A DNA stretch of 64,000 nt from Candidatus Uhrbacteria bacterium (GTDB lineage: Bacteria > Patescibacteriota > Patescibacteriia > UBA9934 > GWF2-40-263): positions 150,192-214,191 of the forward strand of contig JACPHT010000008.1 in the NCBI GenBank assembly GCA_016188475.1, written 5' to 3'. Shown here piece after piece: positions 45,530 to 63,584 of this stretch. Every line of letters starts with the position of its first letter. Within the stretch, counting starts at the first letter, position 1. The position numbers and the translations under genes are program-made. Below the pieces are notes generated by a model. That model saw only the letters and a list, made by a program, of their open reading frames with translations. It was not told where the DNA came from and made no database searches.

Positions 45530-45612
45530 GTCATTGCGAGAGAGCGCCAGCGACCGAAGCAATCTCTTTGCTTAGATTGCTTCGTCGTCACTACGTTCCT
45601 CCTCGCAATGAC
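45530..45612. repeat. Nested palindromic element GTCATTGCGAG...cgaagcaatct-loop-agattgcttcg...CTCGCAATGAC, between pheS and rseP
   Basis: Seen directly. Confidence 0.65.
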
Positions 45613-47944: not shown

Positions 47945-49312
47945 CTATTCATTTTCTTTGATAAAAGCAATCAACTCGTCACGCTTTTCTTTCATCAACT
48001 CATCGCTGGTTGCTTCGACAATTAATCGCAAAAGCGGTTCTGTATTCGACGGACGAATAATAAACCACCAATCACGATCAAACTCACAGCGAATTCCATC
48101 GAGTTTATTCACAAAACTTGCGCGATTCACGTAATTTTTTTCGATCGCTGAAATCGCTTTTGCTTTATCACGAACTTCTAAATTCACTTCCCAGCTATTT
48201 GAATAATTGTGAAAATCTTTTGTCAGATCAGAAAATGTTTTTCCAGATCGTCTCCAAATTCCAAGAACATTTACAAAGGCAAAATCAACTGATTCAAGCC
48301 CGCCAAATTCTTTGAAAAAAAAGTGACCGGAAACTTCGCCGCTAAGCGATGCGCCAAAATCATGCATCGCGCCTATCACAAACGTTCGTCCAATTCGAAT
48401 CTCAATTATTTCTCCGCCATTCTCGCGAATTGTGTCGCTTGAAATCCAACTCTGATTTGGTGAAACAACAACTTTCGCTCCGGGTTCGCGTAAAAGTAAA
48501 TCTTTAGAGAGCAAAGCCAACATCTGATCACCGCGCAAAGTGTTCCCTTCGTTATCAACAAACCCAATGCGATCAGAATCACCGTCGAGTGCGATCCCAA
48601 AATCAGCACGCTCTGCAACAACAACTTTTCTCAACACTAACATATTCTCCTCAATCGCGGGATTCGGTTCGTGATTTGGAAAACTTGCATCTGGTTCTGG
48701 AAATAATTCAATCAAATTTATTCCAAGCCCAGCCGCAAGTGGCCTAATGCTCAAAGATCCCATTCCATTTCCATAATCAACAACAATCTTGACTCCTGAA
48801 ACATCTGGAATGCTTACGGTTGTTATGCATTTATCTAAATACAAAGGCAAAATATTTTGTTTTGAAACAGAACCAGAGGTTTCAGCATGCGAAATTCCGG
48901 ATTTTATCAACTGTAAAATCTCTTGGCCCGAAATTGGAACTCCAGTATTATAAGCCATCTTTATTCCATTATACTTCGAGGGATTGTGAGAGGCTGTTAC
49001 CATGAGGCCAGCATCTACATTTTCTTGAGATGAAACCGCGAAGTTATACATTGAAGTCGAACACAAACCAATATCAATTACATTTGCTCCCATTGACGCG
49101 ATTCCTTCAATCGCGGCGTGAGAAAGTTCCTGACTTGTGGATCGCATATCTCTTCCAACAATAACAGTTTTTGCTGAAGTTTTAACAACAAGTGCCATAC
49201 CGACTTGTCTTGCAATTTCTGGCGTAACCTCTTCAAGCAGACCTCGAATGTCATAAGCCTTAAAAATATGGTCTGGAAGTGTGTTCATAATTGACGATTT
49301 TGGCTTATTCAC
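47945..49312 (-). CDS. phosphoglucomutase/phosphomannomutase family protein
   Basis: TASHNPSKYNGIK active-site loop. Confidence 0.8.
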   Translation of the reverse strand: MNKPKSSIMNTLPDHIFKAYDIRGLLEEVTPEIARQVGMALVVKTSAKTVIVGRDMRSTSQELSHAAIEGIASMGANVIDIGLCSTSMYNFAVSSQENVDAGLMVTASHNPSKYNGIKMAYNTGVPISGQEILQLIKSGISHAETSGSVSKQNILPLYLDKCITTVSIPDVSGVKIVVDYGNGMGSLSIRPLAAGLGINLIELFPEPDASFPNHEPNPAIEENMLVLRKVVVAERADFGIALDGDSDRIGFVDNEGNTLRGDQMLALLSKDLLLREPGAKVVVSPNQSWISSDTIRENGGEIIEIRIGRTFVIGAMHDFGASLSGEVSGHFFFKEFGGLESVDFAFVNVLGIWRRSGKTFSDLTKDFHNYSNSWEVNLEVRDKAKAISAIEKNYVNRASFVNKLDGIRCEFDRDWWFIIRPSNTEPLLRLIVEATSDELMKEKRDELIAFIKENE

Positions 49313-49896
49313 GTAAGATTTACTTAGAATTAACCTACAAAAATATGGAACTTATTTGGGTCCTTGTAATTATAGTTGTCCTGCTCGCGCTTTGGCTTAT
49401 TCTAACATATAACGGCCTAATCAGCTCAAGAAATAGAGTGGATGAAGCCTGGTCGGATATTGAAGTTCAGCTCAAGCGCAGATACGACTTGATTCCAAAC
49501 ATCGTAAATACGGTGAAGGGATACGCAACACACGAAGAAAGCGTGTTTAGCAAAGTAACAGAAGCGCGCTCGGCCGCAATGGGAGCTCACACAATGAAAG
49601 ATCACGCGAAAGCGGAAAACATGTTGAGCGAAACGCTTAAGTCTCTTTTTGCTGTTGCTGAAAGCTATCCGCAATTGCAAGCTTCGCAAAACTTCCTTCA
49701 ACTTCAACACGAACTCACAGATGCGGAAGACAAAATCCAGGCCGCGCGACGTTTCTACAACGCAAATACTCGCGACTTCAATACAAAGCTCGAAGTCTTC
49801 CCAACAAATTTAATTGCTGGAACATTTGGATTTACGCGTCGAGAATTTTTTGACGCGCCTGATGTTGAACTTGAAAAACCGGTGGTTCAGTTCTAA
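49291..49896 (+). CDS. lemA: LemA family protein
   Basis: Good resemblance to the LemA family. Confidence 0.7.
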   Translation: MTILAYSRKIYLELTYKNMELIWVLVIIVVLLALWLILTYNGLISSRNRVDEAWSDIEVQLKRRYDLIPNIVNTVKGYATHEESVFSKVTEARSAAMGAHTMKDHAKAENMLSETLKSLFAVAESYPQLQASQNFLQLQHELTDAEDKIQAARRFYNANTRDFNTKLEVFPTNLIAGTFGFTRREFFDAPDVELEKPVVQF

Positions 49897-49898
49897 AT

Positions 49899-50777
49899 AT
49901 GTATTCGCAAATAACTGCGAACAAAAGAAAGACTTGGATTTTAATTTTTGCGTTCGTTGTAGTCATCGTATTGCTCGGATGGATTTTCGGAGCTTGGGCT
50001 GGTGATGGGCGATTTGGAATTATCGCGGCTGTCATTATTGCGACAATCATGACACTTGTTGGATATTACAAAGGTGATTCAGTTGCACTAGCGGTTTCTG
50101 GCGCAAAAGAAATTAAAAAACAAGATAGTCCTGAACTTTATCGGCTGGTTGAAAACTTAAGTATCGCTTCTGGCCTTCAAACACCAAAAGTTTTCATCAT
50201 TCAAGACAGATCAGCAAATGCGTTTGCAACTGGTCGCGATCCACAACATGCGTCAGTTGCGGTTACAACAGGACTTTTACAAATCATGGACAAACAAGAA
50301 CTCGAAGGTGTTCTCGCGCACGAACTTTCACACATTAAAAATTACGACATCCGTGTAATGACAATAGTCGTTGTGCTCGTTGGAGTGATAATGCTTTTGT
50401 CAGACTGGATGTTGCGCTCGATGTTTCATTCCGATCGCGACAACAAAGCCGCTGGAATTCTAGTAATTGTCGGAATTGTTTTAGCGATTTTGTCTCCACT
50501 GTTTGCAGAACTTATCAAACTGGCGGTTTCACGTTCGCGAGAATACTTGGCAGACGCGTCCGGTGCGCTTCTCACTCGTTATCCTGAAGGTCTTGCGCGA
50601 GCTTTGGAAAAAATCGCAATCCACGATAAACCAATGCGAAAAGCGAATCACGCGACAGCACATTTATTTCTCGCCAATCCATTTGATCCACATGTTACAA
50701 AAAAATTTGAACATTTGTTTTCAACTCACCCGCCGATTGAGGAAAGAATAGCGAAACTAAAAAAAATGGCTATTTGA
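49899..50777 (+). CDS. htpX: M48 protease HtpX
   Basis: HELSHIKNYD. Confidence 0.85.
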   Translation: MYSQITANKRKTWILIFAFVVVIVLLGWIFGAWAGDGRFGIIAAVIIATIMTLVGYYKGDSVALAVSGAKEIKKQDSPELYRLVENLSIASGLQTPKVFIIQDRSANAFATGRDPQHASVAVTTGLLQIMDKQELEGVLAHELSHIKNYDIRVMTIVVVLVGVIMLLSDWMLRSMFHSDRDNKAAGILVIVGIVLAILSPLFAELIKLAVSRSREYLADASGALLTRYPEGLARALEKIAIHDKPMRKANHATAHLFLANPFDPHVTKKFEHLFSTHPPIEERIAKLKKMAI

Positions 50778-50778
50778 T

Positions 50779-53223
50779 ATGCCCTTCGACATCATCGATA
50801 AATTTTCAACCCACCTCAAAAACGTGCTTACTCGCGCGCTTTGTTTTGCTGTTGAAATGAATGAAAAAACAATCGAACCTGAGCATTTGTTTTGGGCGCT
50901 CGGAACTCAAAAAGGAAGTATCGGCGCTGAACTTCTAAAAAAAGCAGGTATTAAACAACAGGAATTGCGTATGCTTGTTGGAGCAACACAACGCACAAAA
51001 ACAAAACCAACACTTATAGGCGATTCAACTCTCAATCTTTCAAGTGACTCAAAACGAATAGTTGAAAAAGCGGTGCTCACTGCGAATATCTACGGGCATA
51101 GATATGTTGGAACAGAACATTTACTTTCAGGAATTATTCAAATCGGATGTCCAGTAATCGATCAATTTTTTCTTTCACAACAAACAGATATTAAATCATT
51201 AAAACAACAACTGTCTGTTGTTTTGAAAAACACTTCAAAATTTCCAGACATCGCAGGTTCGCCAACTACAACAACCGAGGAAGAACTAAATAAAATCCCT
51301 GCTCTTGAATTTTTCGGACGTGAATTAACAAATCCAGAAATTCAAAAAACTATTGATCCTGTAATCGGTCGTGAGCAAGAAATCGAACGGCTCATGCAGA
51401 TTCTATGTCGTCGAACAAAAAACAACCCCCTTCTTCTTGGCGCGCCTGGAGTTGGTAAAACCGCAATCGTTGAAGGACTGGCAAAAAAAATTGTTGAAGG
51501 AAACGCGCCGTCAGAACTTCTTGATCGAAGAATTTTTTGCATTGACATGGCTCTTATGATCGCTGGCACAATGTATCGAGGGGAGTTTGAGGGTCGACTG
51601 CGACAAGTGATTGATGAAGTAAAAAAGAACAGCGACATTATTTTGTTCATTGATGAATTGCACACAATAATCGGAGCAGGAGCCACGTCAGGATCAATGG
51701 ACGCCGCAAATATATTAAAACCGGCACTTGCTCGCGGAGAAATTCGCTGTATTGGCGCGACAACTCAAGATGAATACAAAAAACATCTTGAATCAGACAG
51801 CGCGCTTGAACGCCGCTTCCAAACAATCTTCGTCGAAGAACCATCTATTGATGAAGCGCAAACTATTCTTCAAGGCTTGGCTCCATATTACGAAACGTTT
51901 CACAATGTGCGGATTAGTCCTGACGCGCTCATTCAAGCTGTCAAACTTTCCGCTCGATATCTACAAGATCGCCAGCTTCCAGATAAAGCAATCGATTTGG
52001 TTGATGAAGCCGCATCAGCATCGCGATTAAACAGTATTCCATCTGCTTTGTCGCAAACTCGCCGACGTTTGGAAAAAGAATTGAAAGCTATTCTCGAGAC
52101 AAAACGCCAGGCAGTGGTTGATGAACGATTTTTGGACGCGATCGAACTAAAAGAACGTGAAGACCACATAAAATTTATAATTGAAACAGCGGAAACCGAA
52201 AATAACAATAACCAGATTCCAATTATCACTGGAAAAGATGTAGCAAAAATTATAAGCCGCATGACAGGAATTCCGATTGGAGAATTAACGGATTCGACAT
52301 CGTCAAACGCAAAAGAAATTGAACTTCGACTTTCAGAACGAATACTTGGACAAAATCAGGTGGTTGCTTCCGTGGCTGGGGCTCTGGCTCGCGCCAAAAC
52401 CGGAATTGTGCATCCAAAACGCCCGCTTGGTTCTTTTCTGTTTTTAGGTCCGTCAGGAGTTGGAAAAACAGAACTCGCAAAAGCGATCGCACGTGAATTC
52501 TTTCATGATGAAAAAAATTTCGTGCGACTTGACATGTCGGAATACGCGGAAGGTTTCACAGTATCAAAGCTGATCGGCGCGCCAGCTGGTTATGTTGGAT
52601 ATAAAGACCAAGCCAATCTCACAGATCGTGTAAAACAACGACCGTATTCAGTTGTTCTTTTTGATGAAATGGAAAAAGCGCATCATGATGTTCAAAATTT
52701 GCTTCTCCAAATCCTTGAAGAAGGAGAATTGACTGACGCGACAGGAAGAAAAGTGAATTTCAAAAACACAATTATCGTAATGACATCAAACGTTGGAATG
52801 GAAAAATTTGCTAACGGCTCGATCGGATTTGAAGGATCGGGAGAAAACACAAAAATATCTCTGCACGAAGACATTAGAAAAGAATTGGATGACAGATTCC
52901 GTCCTGAACTTATTAATCGAATAGAAATGCTGTGTATTTTTGATTCACTTTCAAACTCTGTTTTAACACAAATTATTGAAAAGGAATTAAAAGAACTTGT
53001 TGCAAGAGTCAAAGAACAACAAGCGATAAGCCTGTCTTTTAACACAAGACTTGCGGAACATTTATCACAAAATTTGGACGCACGTCTTGGGGCAAGAAGT
53101 GTTCGACAAAAAATCCAAACAGAAGTGGAAACAAAGATAGCTGAACGACTAATCAAAAAAGATCGTCCAGAACGTTTGCACATTGATGTAAAAAATGAGA
53201 AAATTATTGTGAAAAAAGTTTAA
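50779..53223 (+). CDS. clpC: Clp ATPase, ClpC-like (two Clp_N repeats, two AAA+ modules)
   Basis: Walker motifs GAPGVGKTAIV and GPSGVGKTELAK. Confidence 0.85.
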   Translation: MPFDIIDKFSTHLKNVLTRALCFAVEMNEKTIEPEHLFWALGTQKGSIGAELLKKAGIKQQELRMLVGATQRTKTKPTLIGDSTLNLSSDSKRIVEKAVLTANIYGHRYVGTEHLLSGIIQIGCPVIDQFFLSQQTDIKSLKQQLSVVLKNTSKFPDIAGSPTTTTEEELNKIPALEFFGRELTNPEIQKTIDPVIGREQEIERLMQILCRRTKNNPLLLGAPGVGKTAIVEGLAKKIVEGNAPSELLDRRIFCIDMALMIAGTMYRGEFEGRLRQVIDEVKKNSDIILFIDELHTIIGAGATSGSMDAANILKPALARGEIRCIGATTQDEYKKHLESDSALERRFQTIFVEEPSIDEAQTILQGLAPYYETFHNVRISPDALIQAVKLSARYLQDRQLPDKAIDLVDEAASASRLNSIPSALSQTRRRLEKELKAILETKRQAVVDERFLDAIELKEREDHIKFIIETAETENNNNQIPIITGKDVAKIISRMTGIPIGELTDSTSSNAKEIELRLSERILGQNQVVASVAGALARAKTGIVHPKRPLGSFLFLGPSGVGKTELAKAIAREFFHDEKNFVRLDMSEYAEGFTVSKLIGAPAGYVGYKDQANLTDRVKQRPYSVVLFDEMEKAHHDVQNLLLQILEEGELTDATGRKVNFKNTIIVMTSNVGMEKFANGSIGFEGSGENTKISLHEDIRKELDDRFRPELINRIEMLCIFDSLSNSVLTQIIEKELKELVARVKEQQAISLSFNTRLAEHLSQNLDARLGARSVRQKIQTEVETKIAERLIKKDRPERLHIDVKNEKIIVKKV

Positions 53224-53234
53224 TCTCTGTTTAC

Positions 53235-53909
53235 ATGGTTCTACCTGCAATAGCCGCAACTGCCGAACGCTTTGCCGCCGGTGCCGGACGCGCGGTTGCT
53301 TCGGCTTCTTCAAAAGGTGCTAAGATTAGTTCTGTTGCTCAAATGAAAAGTCAATTTCAAAAAAACAAAAAACAACAAGAAAATGGCGAGCAACTAAATT
53401 CAGCACTTGAGCAAACAACAATGGCATCAAGCCCGACACAGCAATTCAAACAAACAATGGCAATGGCTCGAAGATTAAATTCATCAAAGACTGATGCTGA
53501 AGATACAGAACAGGAATCGGATCATGGAGATGAACAAGCGTTAAAACAAGCCGCGATAAAAAAAGTGATACCAAGAGGAGTCGCATTTCTGGCAAATCAA
53601 ATCGCAACGGCGCTTGAACTTAGCACAGCCGGAACTGCGTTTATATTTACTTGGTTTATACGACTGTTCTCACTTGGTTGGCTTAACGTTGAAATGGTTT
53701 ACGGGCGTTGGATCGCAAAAGGAAAAAGCAAAGCGGTCCCCCCGCTTGATTGGGCTCCAATTCCAATGCCGATTGATAAAGACGCAAAAATACTTCAAGC
53801 GATTGTTATTTTGGCGGATGTTTTCTGTATCGTACTTCTTCTTCTGGTATTTGCTTTGCCAATAATTTTATTAACAGCTCTTTTTGGAAGCATCTCATCT
53901 ATACTGTAA
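53235..53909 (+). CDS. hypothetical protein with C-terminal TM helices
   Basis: ORF. Confidence 0.35.
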   Translation: MVLPAIAATAERFAAGAGRAVASASSKGAKISSVAQMKSQFQKNKKQQENGEQLNSALEQTTMASSPTQQFKQTMAMARRLNSSKTDAEDTEQESDHGDEQALKQAAIKKVIPRGVAFLANQIATALELSTAGTAFIFTWFIRLFSLGWLNVEMVYGRWIAKGKSKAVPPLDWAPIPMPIDKDAKILQAIVILADVFCIVLLLLVFALPIILLTALFGSISSIL

Positions 53910-53915
53910 ATTAAT

Positions 53916-55139
53916 ATGTCAGAAAAAATTAAACGCGTTCTTCTAATAGTCGGCTTCGTCGCCTCGACCATAATAATTGTATATGGAATTTATTTTGCAT
54001 TCTTCAAAACAAAACCAATAGTTGAACAAGAAACAAAACCGACAATAACAGAAGAAGTAGGAGCGCTTCCAAGCGCGCAAGAAGGCGCGCCAAGTGTTGT
54101 TGAAGAAGGAGTAGGCGGAACCGAAGGTTTACAAACAGCTGACCAAATCGCGAAAGGCGGTGTAACAGTAGCAACAGAATTAACGCAAGCATCAGTTTTC
54201 AACACAACTATTTCATCAGAAGGCAGTGGAGTAAATTTTTACGATAATTCTGATGGAAAATTTTATAGCATAGACTCAACTGGAAAAGTTGTAGAACTTT
54301 CTGAACAGAAATTTCCATCTGTAAAAAAAGCGACTTGGAACAAAGACTCGAAAAAAGCTGTTTTGGAATTTCCAGATGGATCAAATATCGTTTACGACTT
54401 TGACGCTGAAACTCAAGTAACATTGCCAAAACATTGGGAAGACTTTGATTTCTCTCCGACAACAGATGAACTGGCAGCAAAAAGCCTCGGACTTGACCCA
54501 GATAACAGATGGCTCGTGCTTGCCAATTCGGACGGATCAAACGTGAAAAGCATTCAAGCGCTTGGTGACAACGAAAGCAAAGTTCAAGTGAACTGGTCAC
54601 CAAATGATCAAGTTGTCGCGTTTTCAGATACAGCAGAAGGACAAGGAAGTTTTGATCGAAAACTAATTGTTCCACTTGGAAAAAACCATGAAAATTTCAA
54701 AGGACTTGAAGTTGAAGGTCTTGGTTTTTCTTCAAAATGGTCTCCAAACGGAAAACAACTTCTATATTCAGTTTCAGGATCGTACAGTAATTACCGTCCG
54801 TTGTTATGGATTGTTGACGGAACAAGCGCGAGTATGGGAAAAAATCGCAAGAGCCTTTCTGTAAATACATGGGTGGAAAAATGCACATGGTCTACAACCG
54901 ATTCGATCTATTGCGCAGTACCTCGCGACCTTCCACCAAACGCAGGCTTTCAACCAGCCGCATTTAATGACCTTGCGGATTCACTCTATAAAATCGATCT
55001 CACAACAGGAACTTCATCGTTGATAGCAATTCCGGAAGGAGAAAAAACAATGACAAATTTGGTTGTGACAAGCGATCAGTCACTTCTTTATTACACAAAC
55101 GCGCTTAGTGGCCGTTTGGAATATATTAAATTGAAATAG
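53916..55139 (+). CDS. TM-anchored TolB-like beta-propeller protein
   Basis: PD40-like WSPN repeats (WSPNDQVVAFS, WSPNGKQLLYS). Confidence 0.45.
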   Translation: MSEKIKRVLLIVGFVASTIIIVYGIYFAFFKTKPIVEQETKPTITEEVGALPSAQEGAPSVVEEGVGGTEGLQTADQIAKGGVTVATELTQASVFNTTISSEGSGVNFYDNSDGKFYSIDSTGKVVELSEQKFPSVKKATWNKDSKKAVLEFPDGSNIVYDFDAETQVTLPKHWEDFDFSPTTDELAAKSLGLDPDNRWLVLANSDGSNVKSIQALGDNESKVQVNWSPNDQVVAFSDTAEGQGSFDRKLIVPLGKNHENFKGLEVEGLGFSSKWSPNGKQLLYSVSGSYSNYRPLLWIVDGTSASMGKNRKSLSVNTWVEKCTWSTTDSIYCAVPRDLPPNAGFQPAAFNDLADSLYKIDLTTGTSSLIAIPEGEKTMTNLVVTSDQSLLYYTNALSGRLEYIKLK

Positions 55140-55140
55140 T

Positions 55141-55785
55141 ATGAATCGCTGGCTCCCTTTTATCTTTATTGGTTTTTTTACTATCATAATTTTTCTTTTC
55201 TATTCTGTTTTCCTTAGCCCAGTTGATCTGGAAAGACTTCAAAAAGAACAACAACAAATATCCCTGACAGAACCGACAACAACATTTGTGAATCCTTCAC
55301 GTGGCGCAAACGATGCTAAAATCACAATCATTGAATTTGGCGATTTTGAATGCAGTGCGTGTCGCGATCTGATGCCGGCCTTGGAAACAGTTTTGAAAAC
55401 TTATCCAAACGACGTTCGACTTGTTTGGAAAGATTTACCAAATGATTCGGCTCATAAGCAAGCAATTCCGTCTGCCATTGCCGCGCATTGCGCTGATAGA
55501 CAGGGCGGATTTTGGCAATATCACGATGTGTTGTTCCAACGACAAGGATACCTGTCAGAAGATCAATACACACAAATTGCAAGCGAACTTAAACTCGACA
55601 CTGGACGATTTTCCACATGCATTCAAAATCAAGACACGCTTCCGATCGTACAAAAAGACAAAGAAGAAGGCCTCGCGCTTGGGCTTGTCGCAACTCCAAC
55701 AATTTTTGTGAATAAAGAAAAATTCGTCGGAGCAGTAAGTGTAGACGAATTACTACAAGTGATTCAACAAGAACTTTCAAAATAA
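55141..55785 (+). CDS. DsbA-like thiol:disulfide oxidoreductase
   Basis: CxxC motif (FGDFECSACRD). Confidence 0.65.
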   Translation: MNRWLPFIFIGFFTIIIFLFYSVFLSPVDLERLQKEQQQISLTEPTTTFVNPSRGANDAKITIIEFGDFECSACRDLMPALETVLKTYPNDVRLVWKDLPNDSAHKQAIPSAIAAHCADRQGGFWQYHDVLFQRQGYLSEDQYTQIASELKLDTGRFSTCIQNQDTLPIVQKDKEEGLALGLVATPTIFVNKEKFVGAVSVDELLQVIQQELSK

Positions 55786-55810
55786 TGATTATGAAACAGT
55801 CGCAAAATAT

Positions 55811-55891
55811 GTCATTGCGAGGAGCGAAGCGACGAAGCAATCTATGCGAATTAAGAGATTGCTTCGCTCCCTTTTGGTCGCTCGCAATGAC
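55811..55891. repeat. Nested palindromic element (GTCATTGCGAG family); it overlaps the 5' end of the track ORF for the pilin gene
   Basis: Seen directly. Confidence 0.65.
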
Positions 55892-57410
55892 AAATAGGAT
55901 TATTTTTTTATTTCTTTCTTTGTTCATAATTTTCGCACCGATTAGAACTTTCGCGGCTTCGACTTGCTATTGTTATTTCGGAGAAAAAAATGATTGCGCA
56001 CAAACATCTGTAGATGAAAATGCGATTATTGATGAATGTCAGCTCACATGCGAAACAAAATATCAAGACACTTTCAAAAGTGTAGATTTCACTGACGAAG
56101 CAGGTGGAGCAAACGATGTATTGGCACTAATGGATTGTTCATCAGCTCACGCAGACGCAAATGAAGCAGCAACAAAACCTTTCCAAGGAGGCGTTATTCC
56201 AAAATTGAACGTGGATATTCCAACAGTCACCTTTACTCCAGTTCTTCAAAAAGGCGGAAACTTATCAATCAATTTTTTAGCTGACTACATTCAGGGCGTT
56301 TATATTTATCTTTTATCAATAGCGGCAATCATCGCCGTAGTTTATATGATGATTGGAGGTTTGAGGTGGGTGCTTGCGGCTGGAGGCGCATCAAACATTG
56401 GCGAAGCAAAAACAATGATAAAAAATGCTGTGATCGGACTTGTTTTATTATTAAGCGTTGTTCTTATTTTAGAAACCGTAAACCCGCAACTCGCAACATT
56501 TAACCCATTTACAATTGAACGAATTCAAGAAGTAACAATTGATGAACAACAACATGCGCAAGATGCTGAAGAAGAATCTCAAGAACCTACAACACCTACT
56601 CAAGTACCAGCACCTTCAGGAACAGAAGGAACAAAAGTTTCTCTTGCATATTCAGATGGTGGAAGATTAAAAATGGAATATATCCAATTACCGCTTGATG
56701 CTGGCGATGAATATATCACTCCGCCACGCGTTTGCACTGTTCCTGTCCCTTCTGAACCAGCTTCATTGAGTGGTGTTGAAATAAATACAAAGTTTCTTGG
56801 TAATCTAGATTGTAATATCTCAAAACAAACGAAAAATAAAAAACGACCAGATAGTCAGATCAAGATGGTTATTCTACATCAAGGTTTTAAAAGCGATGGA
56901 GGACAAAATGGAAGTATGTGGTTCCAAAATTATGTTTATGGAACAACTGTGGTGTGCAAAAAAGAAAAATCTGGTGTGTTTAATTACAAAGCCTGCCAAC
57001 GAAACGGACAAAAATTGGTAAAACAGCCGACATTAAACCAAACGCCAATCGGAAGTCATTTTGCTGTAACTTTAGGTGGAACGATCTATCAATTAGCTGA
57101 TGTTGGACATATAATGAACCATTGCTGCGCGGAAAACAAAATTTCGGTTGGAATCGATTTGCAGTACGACATCGAAGGTGGAAAAAATGTATATTCAGAT
57201 TCTCAATATAAAAGTCTAGCAAAACTTATCAAAGGACTTAGTGAAAAATATAAATTTCCAATTGACGACAGCACGATAAAAGGCCATTGCGAACTTGGGA
57301 AGCATTCTGATCCTCCAAATTTCGATCTTAAAAAACTCGGAAACTTAATGGGCGTAACATTGGACCCAGGTCAGCATGGGAATGCAAAATGCAGCTGGGT
57401 CGCCTCATAA
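55887..57410 (+). CDS. TrbC/VirB2-like pilin domain protein fused to a C-terminal N-acetylmuramoyl-L-alanine amidase (amidase_2/PGRP-like) domain
   Basis: Signal peptide MTNRIIFLFLSLFIIFAPIRTFAAS; hydrophobic pilin-like segment (YIYLLSIAAIIAVVYMMIGGLRWVLAAGG); C-terminal ISVGIDLQYD and KGHCELGKHSDPPNFD amidase-like motifs. Confidence 0.55.
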   Translation: MTNRIIFLFLSLFIIFAPIRTFAASTCYCYFGEKNDCAQTSVDENAIIDECQLTCETKYQDTFKSVDFTDEAGGANDVLALMDCSSAHADANEAATKPFQGGVIPKLNVDIPTVTFTPVLQKGGNLSINFLADYIQGVYIYLLSIAAIIAVVYMMIGGLRWVLAAGGASNIGEAKTMIKNAVIGLVLLLSVVLILETVNPQLATFNPFTIERIQEVTIDEQQHAQDAEEESQEPTTPTQVPAPSGTEGTKVSLAYSDGGRLKMEYIQLPLDAGDEYITPPRVCTVPVPSEPASLSGVEINTKFLGNLDCNISKQTKNKKRPDSQIKMVILHQGFKSDGGQNGSMWFQNYVYGTTVVCKKEKSGVFNYKACQRNGQKLVKQPTLNQTPIGSHFAVTLGGTIYQLADVGHIMNHCCAENKISVGIDLQYDIEGGKNVYSDSQYKSLAKLIKGLSEKYKFPIDDSTIKGHCELGKHSDPPNFDLKKLGNLMGVTLDPGQHGNAKCSWVAS

Positions 57411-57413
57411 TCT

Positions 57414-58706
57414 ATGTTCATCTGCACTCACTGCGACGCGCAATCCCAAAAATGGGCCGGACGGTGTTTTGAATGTCAGAAATGGGGAACGCTTGTTGAG
57501 CAAGAAACATCAATTAAAAAAACATCATCAGTTTCAAACGCTCGCGCAAAAGAATCAAAAAAACTTTCGGAACTTTCCGGGCAAAACGAGCACGAACGAA
57601 TTCAAACACTCGAACCTGAAATAGATCGTGTGCTTGGAGGAGGGATTGTAAAAGGATCTCTTGTTCTTTTATCTGGAGAACCCGGAATCGGTAAGTCAAC
57701 GCTTGTGGCTGAAATTGCAAAACGTTTTGTTGAACAAGGAAATCCTGTTTTGTACATCTCTGGAGAAGAGTCAGCGCCACAGCTCAAAACAAGATTTGAT
57801 CGCTTGAACACAAAATTAGATCAACTTTTTTTTCTAGAAGCAGGTTCTGTCGAAGCAATCGTTCAAACTATTGAAAAAGAAAAACCAAAAGTTGTTGTGA
57901 TTGATTCAATTCAAACATTATTTTCAGATGGAATCGACAGCACTGCCGGAAGCCCGACAACAGTTCGCTACGCGACTTCCCTTTTGCTTGAACTTGCAAA
58001 ACGAACTCATGTTTCAATTTTTCTGATCGGCCAAGTTACAAAAGACGGCATGGTCGCAGGCCCAAAAACTCTTGAACATTTGGTTGATGTTGTTTTATCG
58101 CTTGACGGAGATTCATCGCATTCATATCGCTGGCTCTCATGTTCCAAAAATCGTTTTGGAGCAATAGAAGAAGTCGGAGTTTTTGAAATGACATCTCATG
58201 GCCTTGAGCCGGTCACAAATCCATCAGCAAAATTTTTAGAAGAACGAGTTGCGGTGCCTGGTTCTGTAATTGCCGCGACAGTTGAAGGTTCGCGAGTATT
58301 TTTGGTTGAAATTCAAGCGCTTGTTGAAAAAACCGCTTATGGAATTCCGGTTAGGCGCGCGTCTGGATTTGATCAAAACCGTCTGCAAATGTTAATTGCA
58401 ATACTTTCAAAACGAGCAGGGCTCAAACTCGGAGAACAAGATATTTATGTAAACGTGATAGGCGGAATGAAAGTTACAGAACCGGCTGTTGATCTTGCGG
58501 TTTGCGCGGCTATTGTGAGCGCGTCAAAAAATATCGCGTTCGCAGATCCAGTGGTTTTCTTCGGCGAAGTCGGACTCGGTGGAGAAGTTAGACGTGTGAC
58601 AGCATCTGAAAAACGAAATGCTGAATCAAAACGTCTTGGAATCAAAAAAATCTTTGGTCCAGAGATTGAAAATGTAAAGCACATCGTTTCATTGCTGTCA
58701 TCATAA
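57414..58706 (+). CDS. radA: DNA repair protein RadA/Sms
   Basis: Zn finger (CTHCDAQSQKWAGRCFEC), RecA-like GEPGIGKST, and Lon-like C-terminus. Confidence 0.9.
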   Translation: MFICTHCDAQSQKWAGRCFECQKWGTLVEQETSIKKTSSVSNARAKESKKLSELSGQNEHERIQTLEPEIDRVLGGGIVKGSLVLLSGEPGIGKSTLVAEIAKRFVEQGNPVLYISGEESAPQLKTRFDRLNTKLDQLFFLEAGSVEAIVQTIEKEKPKVVVIDSIQTLFSDGIDSTAGSPTTVRYATSLLLELAKRTHVSIFLIGQVTKDGMVAGPKTLEHLVDVVLSLDGDSSHSYRWLSCSKNRFGAIEEVGVFEMTSHGLEPVTNPSAKFLEERVAVPGSVIAATVEGSRVFLVEIQALVEKTAYGIPVRRASGFDQNRLQMLIAILSKRAGLKLGEQDIYVNVIGGMKVTEPAVDLAVCAAIVSASKNIAFADPVVFFGEVGLGGEVRRVTASEKRNAESKRLGIKKIFGPEIENVKHIVSLLSS

Positions 58707-58760
58707 GCCCTTCGACTTCGGTAAAGTTATTGCCTGAGCCTGTCGAAGGCCATAACTTTA
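58707..58760 (+). terminator. Hairpin containing the TTGCCTGAGCCTGTCGAAGGC repeat unit, downstream of radA
   Basis: agcccttcgac ... gtcgaaggcc inverted repeat. Confidence 0.35.
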
Positions 58761-58787
58761 ACTGCGCTCGAGATGACGCGATGTATA

Positions 58788-60839
58788 TCATTCCAAATGT
58801 GCTTCCTCAAAAGTTGCACGGATTTTTTCTAAAATGAGTGGATACTTTTCAAGTTCTGGATCCTCATTGAGCAATTTTGTTGTCCAATCAAAAGTCATTT
58901 TCATAATATCAACATCAGCCGGTGTCGCAAATTGAAAATCTGGAAAACCTGATTGAGCATTTCCAAATATATTCCCTGCTCCGCGAAGTTCCAGATCTTT
59001 TTCTGCGAGTTCGAATCCGTTTTGTGTTTGTTCAAGTGTTCGCAAACGCTCAAGTGCGATCTCGCTTGCATCATCCGACAGTAAATAACAATATGATCTT
59101 AGATCGCTTCTCCCAACACGACCACGAAGTTGATGGAGTTGCGCCAAACCAAATCGTTCTGCCCCAAAAATTACCATAACAGTTGCGTTAGGAACATCAA
59201 CTCCAACTTCCACAACAGTTGTTGAAACAAGAACATTTGTTTTTCCATCTTTGAATTTTTGTATAGCTTCTTGTTTTTCATCAGACTTTAATCTTCCATG
59301 CAAAATACCAATCTTGTAATCTTTAAGAGGACCTTTTTTAAGTTGTTCGCTAACATCGGTAACACTTTTCGCTCCTTGTTTATCAGATGGATCAATAAGC
59401 GGACACACTATATAAACCTGTTGCCCAAGCTTTATTTGACCCTTCACATGTTGCCACATTCCAGTACGGTGATTAGATGAAACAATCGCAGTTCCGATTG
59501 GTTTTCTGCCTTTTGGAAGCTGTGAGATAGCTGAAATATCTAAATCTCCATAAACAGTAAGGGCAAGCGAACGCGGAATTGGAGTGGCTGTCATTGATAG
59601 AAGATGTGCTGAAATTTGTCTCCCCTTCTCTAAGAGAGCATGACGTTGAGCCACACCAAAACGGTGTTGTTCGTCCACAATTACAAATGCAAGATTTGGA
59701 ATCTCGACCATCTCATCAAGCAAAGCGTGCGTGCCGACAACACAACGAACGTCACCGTTTTTTAATTTTTGCAAAAGTTCATCTTTTTTAACATCTTCAT
59801 CTCCAATCCGTTTTTGTGAACGAGTAAAAAGCGCTACTTTATACAATGGTAAAAATTTAGAAAAAACCGCTTGTTGTTGCGCCGCAAGAATTTCAGTTGG
59901 CGCAAGATATACAACCGCAAGATTATTTGAAAGAACGCTGTTTGCCGCGATTGCCGCAACAACAGTTTTTCCAGAGCCAACGTCCCCATGAAGCAAACGA
60001 TTCATAGGATTAGGTTTTGCAAGATCCTGAACAATCTCCCATGCGGCTTTTCGTTGGGCTGATGTAAGTTCAAACGGCAGTTGAGCAACAAATGTCTTCA
60101 AGACTTGTTCATTGATAGGAATTGTATGCGACTTACGTTTTTTGCGATCTTGTCTTGAACGCGCAAACATAAGTTGATGTAAAAATAATTCATCAAACTT
60201 TAAACGCTCGATCGCTTGGGTTAAATCTTTTTGATTTTCAGGAAAATGCACACTTTGGATTGCTTGCGACAAATCTGTATAAGCCGCTCTTTCTCTAATT
60301 GATTCTGGAATCCAATCAACTAGCTCATTTGAAGCTGAAAGAGCCGCGTTGATTGCTGTACGCAAGCGCTTCATTGTAAGCGAACCGGATAAACCATAAA
60401 CAGGAACGATCCTGCCTGTATGAACCCGCTTTCCCTCCGCCTCAAACACAGGATTTACGAGTGCTTTTCCAAAACGAAAATCTACTCGTCCAGAAAACGA
60501 AAGTCGTATGCCAGGACGTATGGTTTCGGTTAGATATTTTTGATTGAACCAAATGATCGGCAGTGTCCCGGTTTCATCTTCGATCACCGCGTCAACAATA
60601 GTCATTCTGCGACTTTTTGCTGGTCGTGAGTTAATAGAAACTATTACCCCACTCACTGTTACTGTTTCACCAGCTTTTACTTTTACGATTGGTTTGATAT
60701 TTGAAAAATCGTCATAGCGAAACGGAACATAAAACAAAAGATCATAAACAGAAAGAACCCCCATGTTTTTGAGGTCTTTAACTGCTTTTCCTCCAATTCC
60801 TGGGAGTTCAGAAACAGATGAGGATAAATGAAGCGCCAT
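58788..60839 (-). CDS. recG: ATP-dependent DNA helicase RecG
   Basis: Wedge domain plus helicase motifs (GDVGSGKTVVA). Confidence 0.9.
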   Translation of the reverse strand: MALHLSSSVSELPGIGGKAVKDLKNMGVLSVYDLLFYVPFRYDDFSNIKPIVKVKAGETVTVSGVIVSINSRPAKSRRMTIVDAVIEDETGTLPIIWFNQKYLTETIRPGIRLSFSGRVDFRFGKALVNPVFEAEGKRVHTGRIVPVYGLSGSLTMKRLRTAINAALSASNELVDWIPESIRERAAYTDLSQAIQSVHFPENQKDLTQAIERLKFDELFLHQLMFARSRQDRKKRKSHTIPINEQVLKTFVAQLPFELTSAQRKAAWEIVQDLAKPNPMNRLLHGDVGSGKTVVAAIAANSVLSNNLAVVYLAPTEILAAQQQAVFSKFLPLYKVALFTRSQKRIGDEDVKKDELLQKLKNGDVRCVVGTHALLDEMVEIPNLAFVIVDEQHRFGVAQRHALLEKGRQISAHLLSMTATPIPRSLALTVYGDLDISAISQLPKGRKPIGTAIVSSNHRTGMWQHVKGQIKLGQQVYIVCPLIDPSDKQGAKSVTDVSEQLKKGPLKDYKIGILHGRLKSDEKQEAIQKFKDGKTNVLVSTTVVEVGVDVPNATVMVIFGAERFGLAQLHQLRGRVGRSDLRSYCYLLSDDASEIALERLRTLEQTQNGFELAEKDLELRGAGNIFGNAQSGFPDFQFATPADVDIMKMTFDWTTKLLNEDPELEKYPLILEKIRATFEEAHLE

Positions 60840-60967
60840 AATTTTAATTATGGTAGTCGTTTGTTTCAGTCAATGCAAGGTTCATCAATCAAAAATTTTT
60901 AACTTTTTCCGTATTTGAATGAGTAGAATTATACTAAACAAAATAAGAATCCTTAAAAAAGTTCAAA

Positions 60968-61000
60968 CACTTAACTCCCGATCGGGAGTTAAGTGTGATT
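60968..61000. repeat. Palindromic element, copy C (CACTTAACTCCCGATCGGGAGTTAAGTGTGATT), upstream of recG and downstream of the tRNA cluster
   Basis: Seen directly. Confidence 0.7.
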
Positions 61001-61183
61001 TAATAATTTCAATTTTTAATGTGTTAAATTTTAAATTAGCTAATAAATTTTTCACGGATTTCGTCTACTAAGTTATCAGTTCAATTATTGTTAAATTTTA
61101 ACTGGGGTGAATAAATGTCAACAAACTCTCACATTATTCCATGCACAAAAAACAGCTCTCGCTGTTTTTCCTGTAATCAAATT

Positions 61184-61260
61184 CTGGTGCGCCCGACAGG
61201 GTTCGAACCTGTGGCCTACAGCTCCGCAAGCTGTCGCTCTATCCAGCTGAGCTACGGGCG
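61184..61260 (-). tRNA. tRNA-Arg, anticodon read as GCG
   Basis: Cloverleaf GCGCCCG-TAGCTCAGCTGGATAGAGC-ACAGC/TTGCGGA/GCTGT-AGGCC-ACAGGTTCGAACCCTGT-CGGGCGC-ACCA, with an encoded CCA end. Confidence 0.75.
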
Positions 61261-61322
61261 CAGATATTAGCCAAAGAATGGACATTTTATTTCCGAGCGA
61301 GGCGACGTGATTTGATTCCATC

Positions 61323-61344
61323 AGATCCAGCTGAGCTACGAGCG
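61323..61344 (-). other. 22-nt duplicate of the 5' end of the tRNA-Arg (one mismatch); a pseudo-tRNA or att-like remnant
   Basis: tccagctgagctacgagcgc vs tccagctgagctacgggcgc, 62 bp apart. Confidence 0.5.
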
Positions 61345-61384
61345 CAGACACAAGCCAACAGATCGCCAATTTTGGAGGTTTTGC

Positions 61385-61900
61385 CTAAAGTTTATACATG
61401 CGACGAGCTATATCTGTCAACCGCTCTTCCTTTCGATTCAAATTTTCTGCACAAAACGGCAGTAAAGATGTACGAACCTGGTTTGGATCCATTTCCTCAA
61501 GAGGAATTGAAAGCATGGGATGCCATCTGTTTTGAAAATCAACGTATAAAATCTTCGTAACTGGCGGATCGTAGATAATAGAAAAATCACGAATCGCATC
61601 AAAGTCATAGTATGTATCATCAATCAAAACACCTGTTGAAGTAATCATGACAGGCACTCGGTCTGGTTCTTTGAAACTTGAAATAAGCATTATCACTCCG
61701 ACCATCAGAATAATCACGGCAAATAAAAAGTTAGCTGTTGCAATCGCATATACAATAAGGGCCACCCCAACTAAAACAGCAACAATATACCAAGTCCTAG
61801 AGCGCTCATGTCGTGGATATTCATCAACTTCCCACTCAAGGATCGGTTCACCGATATCAAAGCTTTGTTCTGTTTGTGATGTTATATTTTGTTCTTCCAT
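61385..61900 (-). CDS. hypothetical 2-TM membrane protein
   Basis: ORF. Confidence 0.4.
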   Translation of the reverse strand: MEEQNITSQTEQSFDIGEPILEWEVDEYPRHERSRTWYIVAVLVGVALIVYAIATANFLFAVIILMVGVIMLISSFKEPDRVPVMITSTGVLIDDTYYDFDAIRDFSIIYDPPVTKILYVDFQNRWHPMLSIPLEEMDPNQVRTSLLPFCAENLNRKEERLTDIARRMYKL

Positions 61901-61984
61901 ACAAAAGATATTTTATCACAAATAAGAAAGAATGAAAAAACATCTTTATCAAAAAACCCGGAACTAATCCGAGTATATTTTATG

Positions 61985-62073
61985 TGGCGGAGAGGGCGAG
62001 ATTCGAACTCGCGAGGGCTATTAACCCTGACAGTTTTCAAGACTGTTGCCGTAAACCGCTTGGCTACCTCTCC
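61985..62073 (-). tRNA. tRNA-Ser (anticodon TGA), type II with a long variable arm
   Basis: GGAGAGG...ACAGT/CTTGAAA/ACTGT...GAGTTCGAATCTCGCCCTCTCCGCCA. Confidence 0.85.
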
Positions 62074-62149
62074 GTGTTTGATAAGTGTTCGAGTTAACTG
62101 ACGGATCTGTATCCAGTTCAATCAAGCCAAGCAGTTGGCTTCATTGAAC

Positions 62150-62244
62150 TGGCGGAGAGGGAGGGATTTGAACCCTCGCGCCGGTTTTAACACCGACCTA
62201 GGAGATTAGCAATCTCCCCCCTTCAGCCTCTTGGGTACCTCTCC
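62150..62244 (-). tRNA. tRNA-Ser (anticodon GCT), type II
   Basis: GGAGAGGTACCCAAGAGGC...GGAGA/TTGCTAA/TCTCC...GGGTTCAAATCCCTCCCTCTCCGCCA. Confidence 0.85.
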
Positions 62245-62289
62245 AAATGTGTGAGCAAGATACATTATTTAGAGAATAAAATCAAGGTT

Positions 62290-63036
62290 TTACATATTCC
62301 CTTTCGCGATCACGAGTCCCCACACGCTTTTCACACCATTCTCTTTCAAACATCGAGCCGCGGAATCCATTGTCGCACCGGATGTAAAAACATCATCGCA
62401 CAACACAACTTTTTCTGGTAACGAAGAGATCCTTCGGCCTTCGGCCTCAGGATGACAATCGGATGTATTTGTCACGTTAGGATTAATCGCAAACAATCCA
62501 TCAAGCTCGCCTAGTTTTCTTACTTCGTGAGATTTTTGCGCCTGTGAAGATGTCTGGCGAGTTCGAACCAATAAATCGTAAACGGGTTGATTATAAATCT
62601 GTCCGCACCAATCTGCCAAAACTCCTGCCTGATCAAAACCACGTGATCGTGTTTTGAAACGGTGAAGAGGAACCGGCGCAAAAACAAAATTTGAAAACGG
62701 TGGTTGAAGCGCTGGAGCTGCTCGAATAATCCATCGAAACAAAACATCGTTCACTGTTTTGTCGCAGATATATTTCCATTGATGAATCGCTTCGCGCACG
62801 ACCGGATTTCCGTAATGAGCAAAAACAGAAAGCCCATCTAAAAAACTTTCGCTTCGACAATCTGAACAAACAAACGACATCGAACCTTTTCCGCAAAACG
62901 GACAACCAAATCGAACTGGTGCCGGCCACCAAGTTGTCGAACATGTTAAACACCAAAGGGTGCCCTCAGTGTGGCACCCTAAACAAAAACGCGGAAATAG
63001 AGAATTTATTGCCAGTTGGCCGATGTGACTTTCCAT
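62290..63036 (-). CDS. comFC: ComF family phosphoribosyltransferase-like competence protein
   Basis: N-terminal Cys-rich zinc finger; C-terminal PRTase motif VVLCDDVFTSGAT. Confidence 0.75.
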   Translation of the reverse strand: MESHIGQLAINSLFPRFCLGCHTEGTLWCLTCSTTWWPAPVRFGCPFCGKGSMSFVCSDCRSESFLDGLSVFAHYGNPVVREAIHQWKYICDKTVNDVLFRWIIRAAPALQPPFSNFVFAPVPLHRFKTRSRGFDQAGVLADWCGQIYNQPVYDLLVRTRQTSSQAQKSHEVRKLGELDGLFAINPNVTNTSDCHPEAEGRRISSLPEKVVLCDDVFTSGATMDSAARCLKENGVKSVWGLVIAKGNM

Positions 63037-63584
63037 ACACCTTCAAGCCTAACAAGTTCAAGCAAGATTTCTTGATTTTCAACATTTGTGTTTTGTGGGG
63101 AATCTTTTGAAATTTGTCTCTGTGTGTTTAATCGAATCGTTGCAAAACCTTTTGTTTCATCAATATTTTCAACAGTGATAATCAGGACCTTCGTAGTCAC
63201 TCCATAATATGTTTCAGGAATAGTGGATTTTGAAATTATATTTTTCGTTTCTTCCGCAAAAGCAGGAGTCATAAGCGGAAGTACATCTATCAAATTCTGA
63301 AAATTAGCTTCGTTTGAATAACTCCCGTATCGCTCAACGAACATCTTTGCAACAGAAGTGACTCCGGCGGCCTGATTTCGAGTGTCTTGTTCTTGTTTGA
63401 GTTGCTGTTCTTTAAGAGTTGGTTGTGTTGTTGTTTCTTCATTCGTTTGAGAAGTTTCAACTGTTTTTTCAACTGTAACTGGTTTTTCAGGACGAGACAA
63501 AAACCACAAAAACCACAAAATCAACAATAAAAGAACGAGCACAATCAAACCGATAATTGTTAATCGCATTTTACGTGTTGTCAT
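63006..63584 (-). CDS. hypothetical TM-anchored, Thr/Gln-rich protein
   Basis: ORF. Confidence 0.35.
   Translation of the reverse strand: MTTRKMRLTIIGLIVLVLLLLILWFLWFLSRPEKPVTVEKTVETSQTNEETTTQPTLKEQQLKQEQDTRNQAAGVTSVAKMFVERYGSYSNEANFQNLIDVLPLMTPAFAEETKNIISKSTIPETYYGVTTKVLIITVENIDETKGFATIRLNTQRQISKDSPQNTNVENQEILLELVRLEGVWKVTSANWQ

Follow-up and report, generated by a model that had tools for sequence, protein, structure and literature searches.

The closest described counterparts of the locus considered here are the type IV secretion systems (T4SSs) of Patescibacteria, in which VirB2-like pilins are encoded near virB4 and most genomes have no detectable VirB1, other hydrolases being allowed as substitutes (PMC12102498). 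Southlakia epibionticum cannot do without its T4SS and pilin array, the function of which is unexplained (PMC10633639, PMC11665869, PMC12857230), and reviews describe the role of the Patescibacteria T4SS as wholly unknown (PMC11665869, PMC12857230). The pilins belong to Pfam family PF18895, have a signal peptide followed by a two-helix hairpin, lie within a few genes of a Patescibacteria-clade VirB4, PrgI and TrsD, sometimes as tandem paralogues, and have been treated as small proteins, neither of the two papers concerned mentioning enzymatic domains (Wang et al., 2023, PMC10633639; Quinonero-Coronel et al., 2025, PMC12102498). Here we analyse a 64,000-nucleotide stretch (hereafter the window) of contig JACPHT010000008.1 from a Candidatus Uhrbacteria bacterium, in which one of four tightly packed genes on the plus strand (53235-57410) fuses a hairpin of this pilin family to a predicted peptidoglycan amidase head, close to a T4SS operon. 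The bacterium is an ultra-small one of groundwater.

The fusion protein shares with these pilins the Pfam family, the signal peptide with hairpin and the nearby T4SS genes, and differs from them in a Cys-rich N-terminal domain of ~75 aa, a C-terminal extension of ~300 aa and a separate operon that includes a propeller and a DsbA-like gene. The VirB1-class hydrolases (VirB1, PrgK of pCF10, TraG of pIP501, CwlT of ICEBs1 and TcpG) resemble it as wall hydrolases encoded near a T4SS, the monoderm ones membrane-tethered and multi-domain, with local opening of peptidoglycan for the machine as their presumed role; they differ in joining an SLT/lysozyme domain to a CHAP or NlpC/P60 domain on a single N-terminal transmembrane (TM) anchor, and the T4SS operon at the window, unlike those arrangements, also has a separate M23 lipoprotein. 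To our knowledge none of these enzymes has a pilin hairpin as its base, heads of Amidase_2 type are uncommon in the role and Gram-positive-type T4SSs normally have no pilin. VirB2, TrbC and TraA (PF04956 and relatives) have in common with the fusion a leader that is cleaved off, a pair of hydrophobic helices with a short basic loop between them and the predicted outside location of both termini, but are proteins of 7-12 kDa without further domains and have no significant match to the fusion, whose host is a monoderm. The X-T4SS effectors (X-Tfes) of Xanthomonas and Stenotrophomonas are also T4SS-associated and have interchangeable wall-degrading domains, in their case aimed at the wall of another bacterium (PMC6536674); they are soluble substrates with a C-terminal XVIPCD signal and immunity lipoproteins, whereas the fusion is predicted to be exported by Sec and to stay tethered to the membrane, and an immunity gene is not apparent. 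An original prediction, made from the letters of the stretch, had stated that pilin-hydrolase fusions are reported in lineages of the Candidate Phyla Radiation (CPR), a statement for which full-text searches of the literature returned no supporting paper: none describes pilin-hairpin/peptidoglycan-hydrolase fusions and the key papers are silent on them. The Patescibacteria T4SS, the PF18895 pilins and a CPR family of DsbA-like proteins are already known; a large modular class of hairpin/hydrolase proteins, the conserved propeller-DsbA-carrier locus (the carrier being signal peptide, Cys domain and hairpin) and the swapping of heads at that locus are apparently undescribed.

The four open reading frames (ORFs) of the block, of 224, 407, 214 and 541 aa (Table 1), are real genes, since homologues occur in the same order in at least 10 independent metagenome or genome contigs; in addition, the 224-aa protein (p224) and a 507-aa form of the fusion are 100% identical to NCBI proteins of 'Candidatus Uhrbacteria bacterium' (Patescibacteria/Parcubacteria group). 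The four-gene module that the original prediction had proposed at 53235-57410 was thus recovered with every ORF at its coordinates and with its order conserved. It is part of a packed string comprising lemA, htpX (M48), clpC, the four block genes and radA, within which the intergenic gaps are 1-11 nt with the single exception of a 101-nt gap, a repeat insertion before the fusion gene, and radA follows the fusion gene by 3 nt. A consensus scan for promoters and terminators over 48800-64000 returned sites no more frequently than in shuffled sequence, and the operon structure is therefore read from gene spacing alone. The surroundings are core housekeeping genes (DnaE, PheST, RseP, TyrS, GlmM, LemA, HtpX, ClpC, RadA, RecG and tRNAs), and the block is chromosomal with no obvious mobile element.

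In an AlphaFold (AF2) model of the fusion protein, built on 14 homologues with a mean predicted local distance difference test score (pLDDT) of 70, a signal helix is followed by a small domain, two helices (130-163 and 168-198, numbered as elsewhere on the 507-aa form unless stated), a disordered stretch and a well-modelled C-terminal domain. The Pfam model T4SS_pilin (PF18895) matched aa 169-229 of the 541-aa ORF with 28.0-28.1 bits (cut-off 26.6), and the NCBIfam 'Mbov_0395 pilin-like' model, from integrative and conjugative elements (ICEs) of Mollicutes, gave a weak match over the same hairpin (4.6e-4). Hydropathy and the model agree on a leader peptide, two hydrophobic helices and a short basic loop, which in the sequence is Lys-rich (GASNIGEAKTMIKN) with acidic outer flanks. 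Across 145 relatives of 17-35% overall identity G158 and G184 are invariant, and P105, P112, Y134, Y139 and P200 nearly so. At 507 aa and with two extra ectodomains the protein departs from a small stand-alone pilin subunit; its gene lies ~6.2 kb from the virB4 stop, with five protein genes and three tRNA genes between, within the criterion of ~20 coding sequences used for Patescibacteria pilins (PMC12102498).

It might be asked whether the fusion is an artefact of assembly or gene calling, or whether the pilin match is one that any hydrophobic hairpin could produce by chance. The PF18895 score of the window protein exceeds the cut-off by just 1.4 bits, and read-through across tandem pilin genes may account for some of the relatives with several hairpins, both of which would fit such an explanation. 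We nevertheless regard it as very improbable indeed, given that the same single ORF is found in many independent assemblies (NCBI, ENA, JGI and Logan), that T4SS_pilin was matched in 100 of 103 sequences scanned (the 102 best relatives and the window protein) at E values down to 1.8e-25, and that the second NCBIfam model is independent of the first. No other ORF of the window matches the hairpin profile, and two home-made hidden Markov models searched against the 64-kb window and the T4SS operon found no further pilin-hairpin gene, the fusion being the sole one.

The C-terminal domain matched Pfam Amidase_2 with 45 bits (cut-off 26; aa 358-510 of the 541-aa ORF) and, by Foldseek at probability 1.00, the LysCS/LysC amidase endolysins, AmpD, T7 lysozyme and peptidoglycan recognition proteins (PGRPs). 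The 14 homologues all keep its predicted Zn ligands, H331, H467 and D475, of which the latter two align with AmpD H154 and D164. At the other end of the protein, aa 26-98 model as a small alpha/beta fold (pLDDT ~70-83) with six conserved cysteines, each present in 10-13 of the 14 homologues. Altogether 14 cysteines are conserved in the fusion, six before the hairpin, eight after it (aa 283-502) and none within it. The segments before the hairpin, the hairpin itself and the segment before the amidase are the least variable, whilst the linker and the N-terminal domain vary most, the linker (aa 211-263) being the least conserved of all at 17-68% identity and of variable length among orthologues. 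The signal peptide is presumably cleaved, and the basic inter-helix loop, the acidic flanks and the distribution of cysteines point to a topology with the N-terminus out, the loop in and the C-terminus out, in which both ectodomains would be disulfide-bonded outside the cell.

The locus is conserved whilst the head that it encodes is not. In every Uhrbacteria-type contig examined the order is M48, ClpC, p224, the 407-aa protein (p407), DsbA, one or two carrier-head genes and RadA, and onward RecG, a 171-aa protein (p171), further genes, ComF, a 192-aa protein (p192) and VirB4, all of these named onward genes being on the minus strand; the core p407-DsbA-carrier-head-RadA persists down to ~40% identity (contigs L013-L015; contigs and proteins of relatives are given by handles in L and P). 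The fusion is among the least conserved products, at 53-75% identity in the first syntenic loci, with neighbours at 85-92% where the fusion is at 75%. At the orthologous site the head is Amidase_2 in the window, L005 and L009-L015, Peptidase_C39_2 in the second gene of L005 and in L017, VanY/M15 in L007, L011 and the P0042 contig, M23 in P0017 and L019, M15_4 in L019, SLT-like (by motif only) in P0015 and P0016, and SLT with a GDSL esterase in L015 and L021. A profile of the carrier was searched among 1.84 billion proteins and returned 44,076 representatives at E ≤ 1e-3, of which 781 at E ≤ 1e-30; the best 150 are mostly of 400-550 aa, with a few head-less forms of ~234-290 aa. Recognised heads in the 103 sequences scanned are almost all peptidoglycan hydrolases: VanY (19), M15 (13), C39_2 (11), NlpC/P60 (9), M23 (8), SLT (6), M15_4 (6) and Amidase_2 (4, the window protein included), plus glucosaminidase and GDSL, these counts being per Pfam family and overlapping, as related families match the same proteins.

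Single polypeptides with two to six tandem T4SS_pilin hairpins also occur (L020 1361-3217, P0258, P0156, P0181 and P0193), some of them SLT-ended; these represent 'pilin layers' joined covalently or else tandem pilin arrays that have been read through. In L020, the region near yidC/rnpA has genes for one hairpin protein and one four-hairpin SLT protein and, after them, a p407 homologue; this recurrence of the propeller gene after hairpin genes in a different context lends support to a functional link of the propeller with the carrier-head genes.

The gene directly upstream of the carrier-head gene in every locus examined encodes a DsbA-like protein, in the window with Pfam matches to Thioredoxin_4 (1.2e-25, 91 bits) and DSBA (5.4e-12, 46 bits), and with ScsC/DsbA-like proteins, BdbD (3eu3, 3.4e-12) and the DsbA 4pwo as relatives in the PDB. 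It fits the MdbA-like family fam000318, which is enriched in CPR bacteria and has been proposed to fold pilins (Meheust et al., 2019, PMC6744442). With the pilin oxidoreductases of monoderms (BdbD of B. subtilis, MdbA of Actinomyces and Corynebacterium and fam000318) it shares a membrane-anchored DsbA fold, a CxxC motif and an adjoining gene for a secreted, Cys-rich client of pilin type, and it differs in that its proposed client is a T4SS-type pilin-hydrolase and not a type IV or sortase pilin. The neighbour most likely forms the disulfides of the 14-Cys fusion ectoprotein; no VKOR/DsbB partner was found in the module.

The propeller, p407, was modelled with a pLDDT of 82; a TM helix at its N-terminus is joined by 45 disordered residues to ~7 blades, and its Foldseek matches are 7-bladed WD40 proteins, oligogalacturonate lyase, tricorn and DPP-IV. 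Its 1136 homologues are all from Patescibacteria where named, and many have a precomputed PD40 assignment; PD40/TolB profile matches to p407 itself are weak. TolB resembles it as an extracytoplasmic PD40-type propeller with a weak partial match (1.4e-5), and p407 is unlike TolB in having a TM anchor in place of a cleaved signal, ~7 blades and not 6, and no TolB N-domain. Identification as TolB was rejected, the match covering aa 197-288 only at 24.3 bits against a cut-off of 343, and in a monoderm host neither an outer membrane nor Pal would be expected. As regards the original prediction, the DsbA-like CxxC protein held up in full, with its CSAC motif, Pfam matches and PDB relatives; the periplasmic TolB-like PD40 propeller held as to the fold and not as to TolB; and its suggestion of VirB6/TrbL for the small TM protein p224 did not hold. 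For p224 that assignment was dropped as no Pfam domain was found in the 16 family members scanned and the protein is not polytopic (criterion at least 5 TM segments).

The ORF fragment at the 3' edge of the window aligns with the C-terminal portions of models for the VirB4 family (CD1110 family, 1.6e-14). The window was extended via the neighbouring p192, Logan contig L001 matching its last 1571 bases (62430-64000) at 100%, and the full-length protein (L001 8052-10004) scored 332 bits with NF045971, the CD1110 family (cut-off 325), matched P-loop_TraG at 3e-28 and has Walker A (SSGAGKS) and Walker B (ILVIDE) motifs, both of them outside the window. The operon thus revealed lies mostly just beyond 64000 on the minus strand, is compact and convergent on the four-gene module, and consists of an M23 lipoprotein, a 948-aa and a 431-aa protein, PrgI/VirB3, a TrsD-like protein, VirB4, p192 and ComF; RecG, p171 and three tRNA genes separate the two. 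It is of monoderm type, is arranged in the same way in relatives and matches the MPF-FATA-like 'Patescibacteria clade' T4SS of Quinonero-Coronel et al. (PMC12102498). The p192 gene overlaps the virB4 stop by 4 nt and comF overlaps p192 by 31 nt, a comF-p192-virB4 string kept in all close relatives, so that comF would seem to share a transcript with the T4SS operon. No relative of p192 was found by its profile among PDB sequences or in Pfam, and its position alone would prompt a guess that it is VirB8-like. The 948-aa protein (7-8 TM segments and a large soluble part, with no profile match) is a better VirB6 candidate than p224. No protein of the region is better conserved than VirB4, which has 87-96% identity in L005-L012, against 65-89% for ClpC, 64-92% for RadA and 59-89% for RecG, and 84% in L019, against 60% for ClpC; judged by these identities, the constraint on it is unusually strong for a T4SS ATPase. 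The operon begins (L001 659-2650) with the gene for the M23 peptidase, a product of lipoprotein type with 663 aa and 17 cysteines; as a second wall hydrolase rich in Cys, it could also depend on the DsbA-like protein.

This neighbourhood could be seen as a machine for DNA transfer or uptake, a ComB-like T4SS in which the module, ComF, RadA, RecG and VirB4 would act together and the pilin-amidase would open the wall for DNA, and such a function has been floated for the Patescibacteria T4SS by analogy with ComB of H. pylori (PMC11665869). The overlapping comF-p192-virB4 string in all close relatives, the placement of radA 3 nt after the fusion and a weak partial match of VirB4 to the archaeal DNA-import ATPase CedB (5.9e-12) are in keeping with it, and yet we consider it improbable, for several reasons. 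No relaxase and no VirD4-type coupling protein was found among the gene products scanned in ~73 kb. Adjacency of clpC and radA is seen in the ctsR-mcsA-mcsB-clpC-radA-disA operon of B. subtilis, and because the pair is old the module looks inserted between the two genes and not recruited to radA. Relaxases are rare in Patescibacteria (PMC12102498), and transformation of S. epibionticum needs type IV pili and ComEC and is dispensable, whereas its T4SS is essential (PMC10633639, PMC12857230). Of what the original prediction had said of this side of the window, the VirB4/TrbE-like nature of the edge ORF was confirmed by the contig extension, as was the nearby comFC by a TIGR00201 match, but the dispersed DNA-transfer or uptake system that it drew from them was not, the T4SS being encoded in one compact operon.

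The reading that we favour, with a chance of being correct that we put at about even, is that of a disulfide-stabilised hydrolase tethered by its pilin hairpin at the T4SS, where it opens peptidoglycan, either in the cell's own wall or in that of the host. The protein would be exported by Sec and lose its signal peptide, leaving the small Cys-rich domain outside the cell; the hairpin would sit in the membrane so that its Lys-rich loop faces the cytoplasm, and the flexible linker, with at least ~50 disordered residues, would carry the predicted zinc amidase head outside. The adjacent DsbA/BdbD-like oxidoreductase would form the disulfides, and the membrane-anchored propeller, as a conserved partner, would serve as scaffold or regulator of the hydrolase. 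Since the hairpin seems too conserved for a passive anchor and its family marks Patescibacteria T4SS loci, it may dock in or co-assemble with the T4SS channel or filament in the manner of VirB2, so that the tethered amidase would cut peptidoglycan where the T4SS crosses it, the role of VirB1. In F-type and T-type pili both termini of the pilin face outward, and if the hairpin were to polymerise the heads would decorate the filament.

Several observations weigh against this arrangement. The canonical VirB2/TrbC model PF04956 had no match to the fusion at E ≤ 1, and hhalign of the N-terminal module with VirB2 of A. tumefaciens (pTiC58) gave an E value of 0.079 and a probability of 0.7%, from a comparison with one template in which a deeper profile might still connect hairpin and VirB2; the same module's profile searched against PDB sequences returned no pilin and nothing meaningful. 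The TrbC/VirB2-type pilin with an amidase_2 domain that the original prediction had named is accordingly correct as a fusion of a PF18895 hairpin to Amidase_2 and does not extend to TrbC/VirB2 proper. PF18895 proteins are themselves only putatively formers of a pilus or contacts of the T4SS, and a homopolymeric filament of VirB2 type would leave little room for subunits of 507 aa that have two ectodomains each. The module stands in a transcription unit separate from, and convergent with, that of virB4, amid housekeeping genes, and the T4SS operon has in its M23 lipoprotein a hydrolase of its own that might stand in for VirB1. The most distant syntenic relatives, L013 and L015, had no VirB4 in the flanks fetched, of 10 kb each. 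In the active site, the general base E116 of AmpD aligns with an invariant Asp (D424), the position of T7 Y46 is a Ser and a Lys (cf. T7 K128) precedes the HSDP motif; given the Asp at the E116 position, we call amidase activity of the head likely and no more.

Some of these observations would also suit an ordinary housekeeping autolysin, in which the hairpin is a mere anchor, the cell trims its own wall for growth or daughter separation, the propeller and DsbA-like protein are general partners in envelope maintenance and closeness to the T4SS is incidental, a conserved chromosomal neighbourhood. The location of the module in a core housekeeping region, its transcription apart from virB4 and the persistence of the core triad in L013 and L015 in the absence of VirB4 from the flanks fetched all favour this, as do the size of the propeller family, which at 1136 members far exceeds the amidase-fusion family (18 hits), as would suit a general envelope protein, and the simple NCBI name of amidase. 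Other features are harder to accommodate. Bond specificity is swapped between close relatives, which is unexpected for a precise morphogenetic hydrolase, and specificities exchanged so freely at a single locus are easier to reconcile with the making of holes than with precise morphogenesis; the hairpin is conserved at the level of single residues and matched by two independent T4SS-pilin profiles; two to six tandem hairpins, as in some relatives, are needless for anchoring; and the fusion has diverged more rapidly than the adjoining products (75% identity against 85-92%), like proteins of surface interaction. An autolysin of this kind we therefore hold to be possible, though somewhat unlikely.

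The most likely start of the fusion is the ATG at 55887, giving 507 aa. The ORF as listed is open from 55785, and its codons 1-34 overlie an imperfect palindromic element of 80 nt between the dsbA-like and fusion genes, which folds as RNA with -38.2 kcal/mol (z -4.4) and has further copies in the window at 45530-45612 and, as a half copy, at ~36958-36995. The element is present at the same site in L010 and, judged from its protein sequence, in the P0002 contig, and it is absent from L009 and L005, where 3 nt separate the dsbA stop from the fusion ATG; the later start follows from the extension being a dispersed repeat missing in those two loci, and from the 507-aa length of the identical NCBI protein P0001, named 'N-acetylmuramoyl-L-alanine amidase [Candidatus Uhrbacteria bacterium]'. 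The 541-aa start was considered for its TAATG overlap with dsbA and for the extension kept in L010 and P0002, and was rejected as a dispersed palindrome. The ATG lies inside the 3' arm of the element, and its position within a stable stem could affect translation or mRNA processing between the dsbA and fusion genes. Translations of the element read 'SLRGAKRRSNL...DCFAPF.SLAMT' and, on the other strand, 'LLRRFAPRNDI'.

Table 1. Features of the module and of the adjoining T4SS-direction genes, with positions in the window.
Feature	Position	Strand	Evidence
ORF of 224 aa; p224 membrane protein	53235-53909	+	ORF list; hydropathy, 19 homologues
ORF of 407 aa; p407 membrane-anchored beta-propeller (TM aa 3-30, linker aa 36-80, ~7 PD40-type blades)	53916-55139	+	ORF list; AF2, Foldseek
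ORF of 214 aa; membrane-anchored DsbA/BdbD/MdbA-type thiol-disulfide oxidoreductase (TM aa 7-25, CSAC aa 71-74)	55141-55785	+	ORF list; Pfam, PDB relatives
ORF of 541 aa (fusion, open from 55785)	55785-57410	+	ORF list
Palindromic element resembling repetitive extragenic palindromes (REP-like; GTCATTGCGAG...CGAAGCAATCT / AGATTGCTTCG...CTCGCAATGAC)	55811-55890	none	Sequence, RNA fold, further copies
Pilin-hairpin/Amidase_2 fusion, 507 aa (most likely start)	55887-57410	+	Pfam, P0001 identity, AF2 model
Predicted signal peptide, aa 1-24 (MTNRIIFLFLSLFIIFAPIRTFAA)	55887-55958	+	Hydrophobic segment, model helix 2-15, position conserved in 14 homologues
Cys-rich N-terminal ectodomain, aa 25-100 (C.CYFGEKNDC...)	55959-56186	+	Alignment, model
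VirB2-like two-helix membrane hairpin, aa 129-200 (T4SS_pilin aa 135-195)	56271-56486	+	PF18895, model
Disordered acidic/Pro-Thr-rich linker, aa 211-263	56517-56675	+	pLDDT <50
Amidase_2 head (N-acetylmuramoyl-L-alanine amidase/PGRP fold), aa 324-476	56856-57314	+	Pfam, Foldseek
ComF-family protein, last gene of the T4SS-direction string	62290-63036	-	TIGR00201 comF, 5.4e-20
p192 bitopic membrane protein (TM aa 8-26 and ~150-aa soluble domain)	63006-63584	-	ORF list, hydropathy
VirB4-type ATPase, C-terminal 139 codons of 650 aa	63581-64000	-	Profile matches, L001

The first gene of the module, p224, has 19 homologues, all of Uhrbacteria type and always encoded between clpC and the propeller gene. 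Both ends of the protein are conserved, the N-terminal one as a segment rich in Ala, Gly and Arg and the C-terminal one as a membrane domain of ~110 aa with the motif LGWLN.EM.YG.WI.KGK...W.PIPMP; between them lies a low-complexity stretch rich in Q and E. Hydropathy shows one strong and one weaker hydrophobic stretch. Comparison of the family with the hairpin profile, and with the gene in the same slot of L015, gave no relationship. In L019 the p224 slot (7866-10004) is occupied by a gene whose 712-aa product matches the PT-TG 'pre-toxin' domain with 41.7 bits and is, over its C-terminal 117 aa, 45% identical to the p224 membrane domain; going by this domain order, the p224-type membrane domain is there in the position of the toxin module of polymorphic toxins. 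Elsewhere in the window, p171 is a membrane protein (61385-61900, minus strand) between RecG and the tRNA/ComF/T4SS string, conserved at 73-91% identity in the majority of close relatives, at 65% in L019 and at 34% in L013, and with weak bacterial-PH and DUF3040 hints only, and a 698-aa ORF (31522-33618, plus strand) amid well-annotated housekeeping genes had no Pfam family at E ≤ 1e-5.

A wider and more tentative step, which we judge fairly unlikely, would be to regard the Patescibacteria hairpin as a general carrier of interchangeable peptidoglycan-cutting heads on a filament or conduit built by the T4SS, a 'lytic pilus' drilling the host wall. If this were true, clpC-(p224)-propeller-dsbA-[carrier-head]n-radA would be a hot spot at which heads are exchanged to match the wall chemistry of the host, and the essentiality of T4SS and pilins for epibiotic growth would be explained without components for DNA transfer. 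The combination of hairpin and amidase is visible in databases, where it is annotated simply as 'amidase', and automated counts of 'VirB2-like pilins' include many large enzymes; the pilin-like hairpin very often carries a wall-cleaving enzyme, the type of which is swapped at one conserved locus. For the 2025 survey's question of how these T4SSs manage with canonical VirB1 mostly undetected (PMC12102498), the fusion offers an answer. It also makes a vague idea of the T4SS at the host interface concrete, in terms of a hairpin that would bring a hydrolase to the machine, of whose wall is cut and of head type against host chemistry. The T4SS of Patescibacteria is widespread, chromosomal and essential in the sole species tested, and the fusion provides a testable clue to its role.

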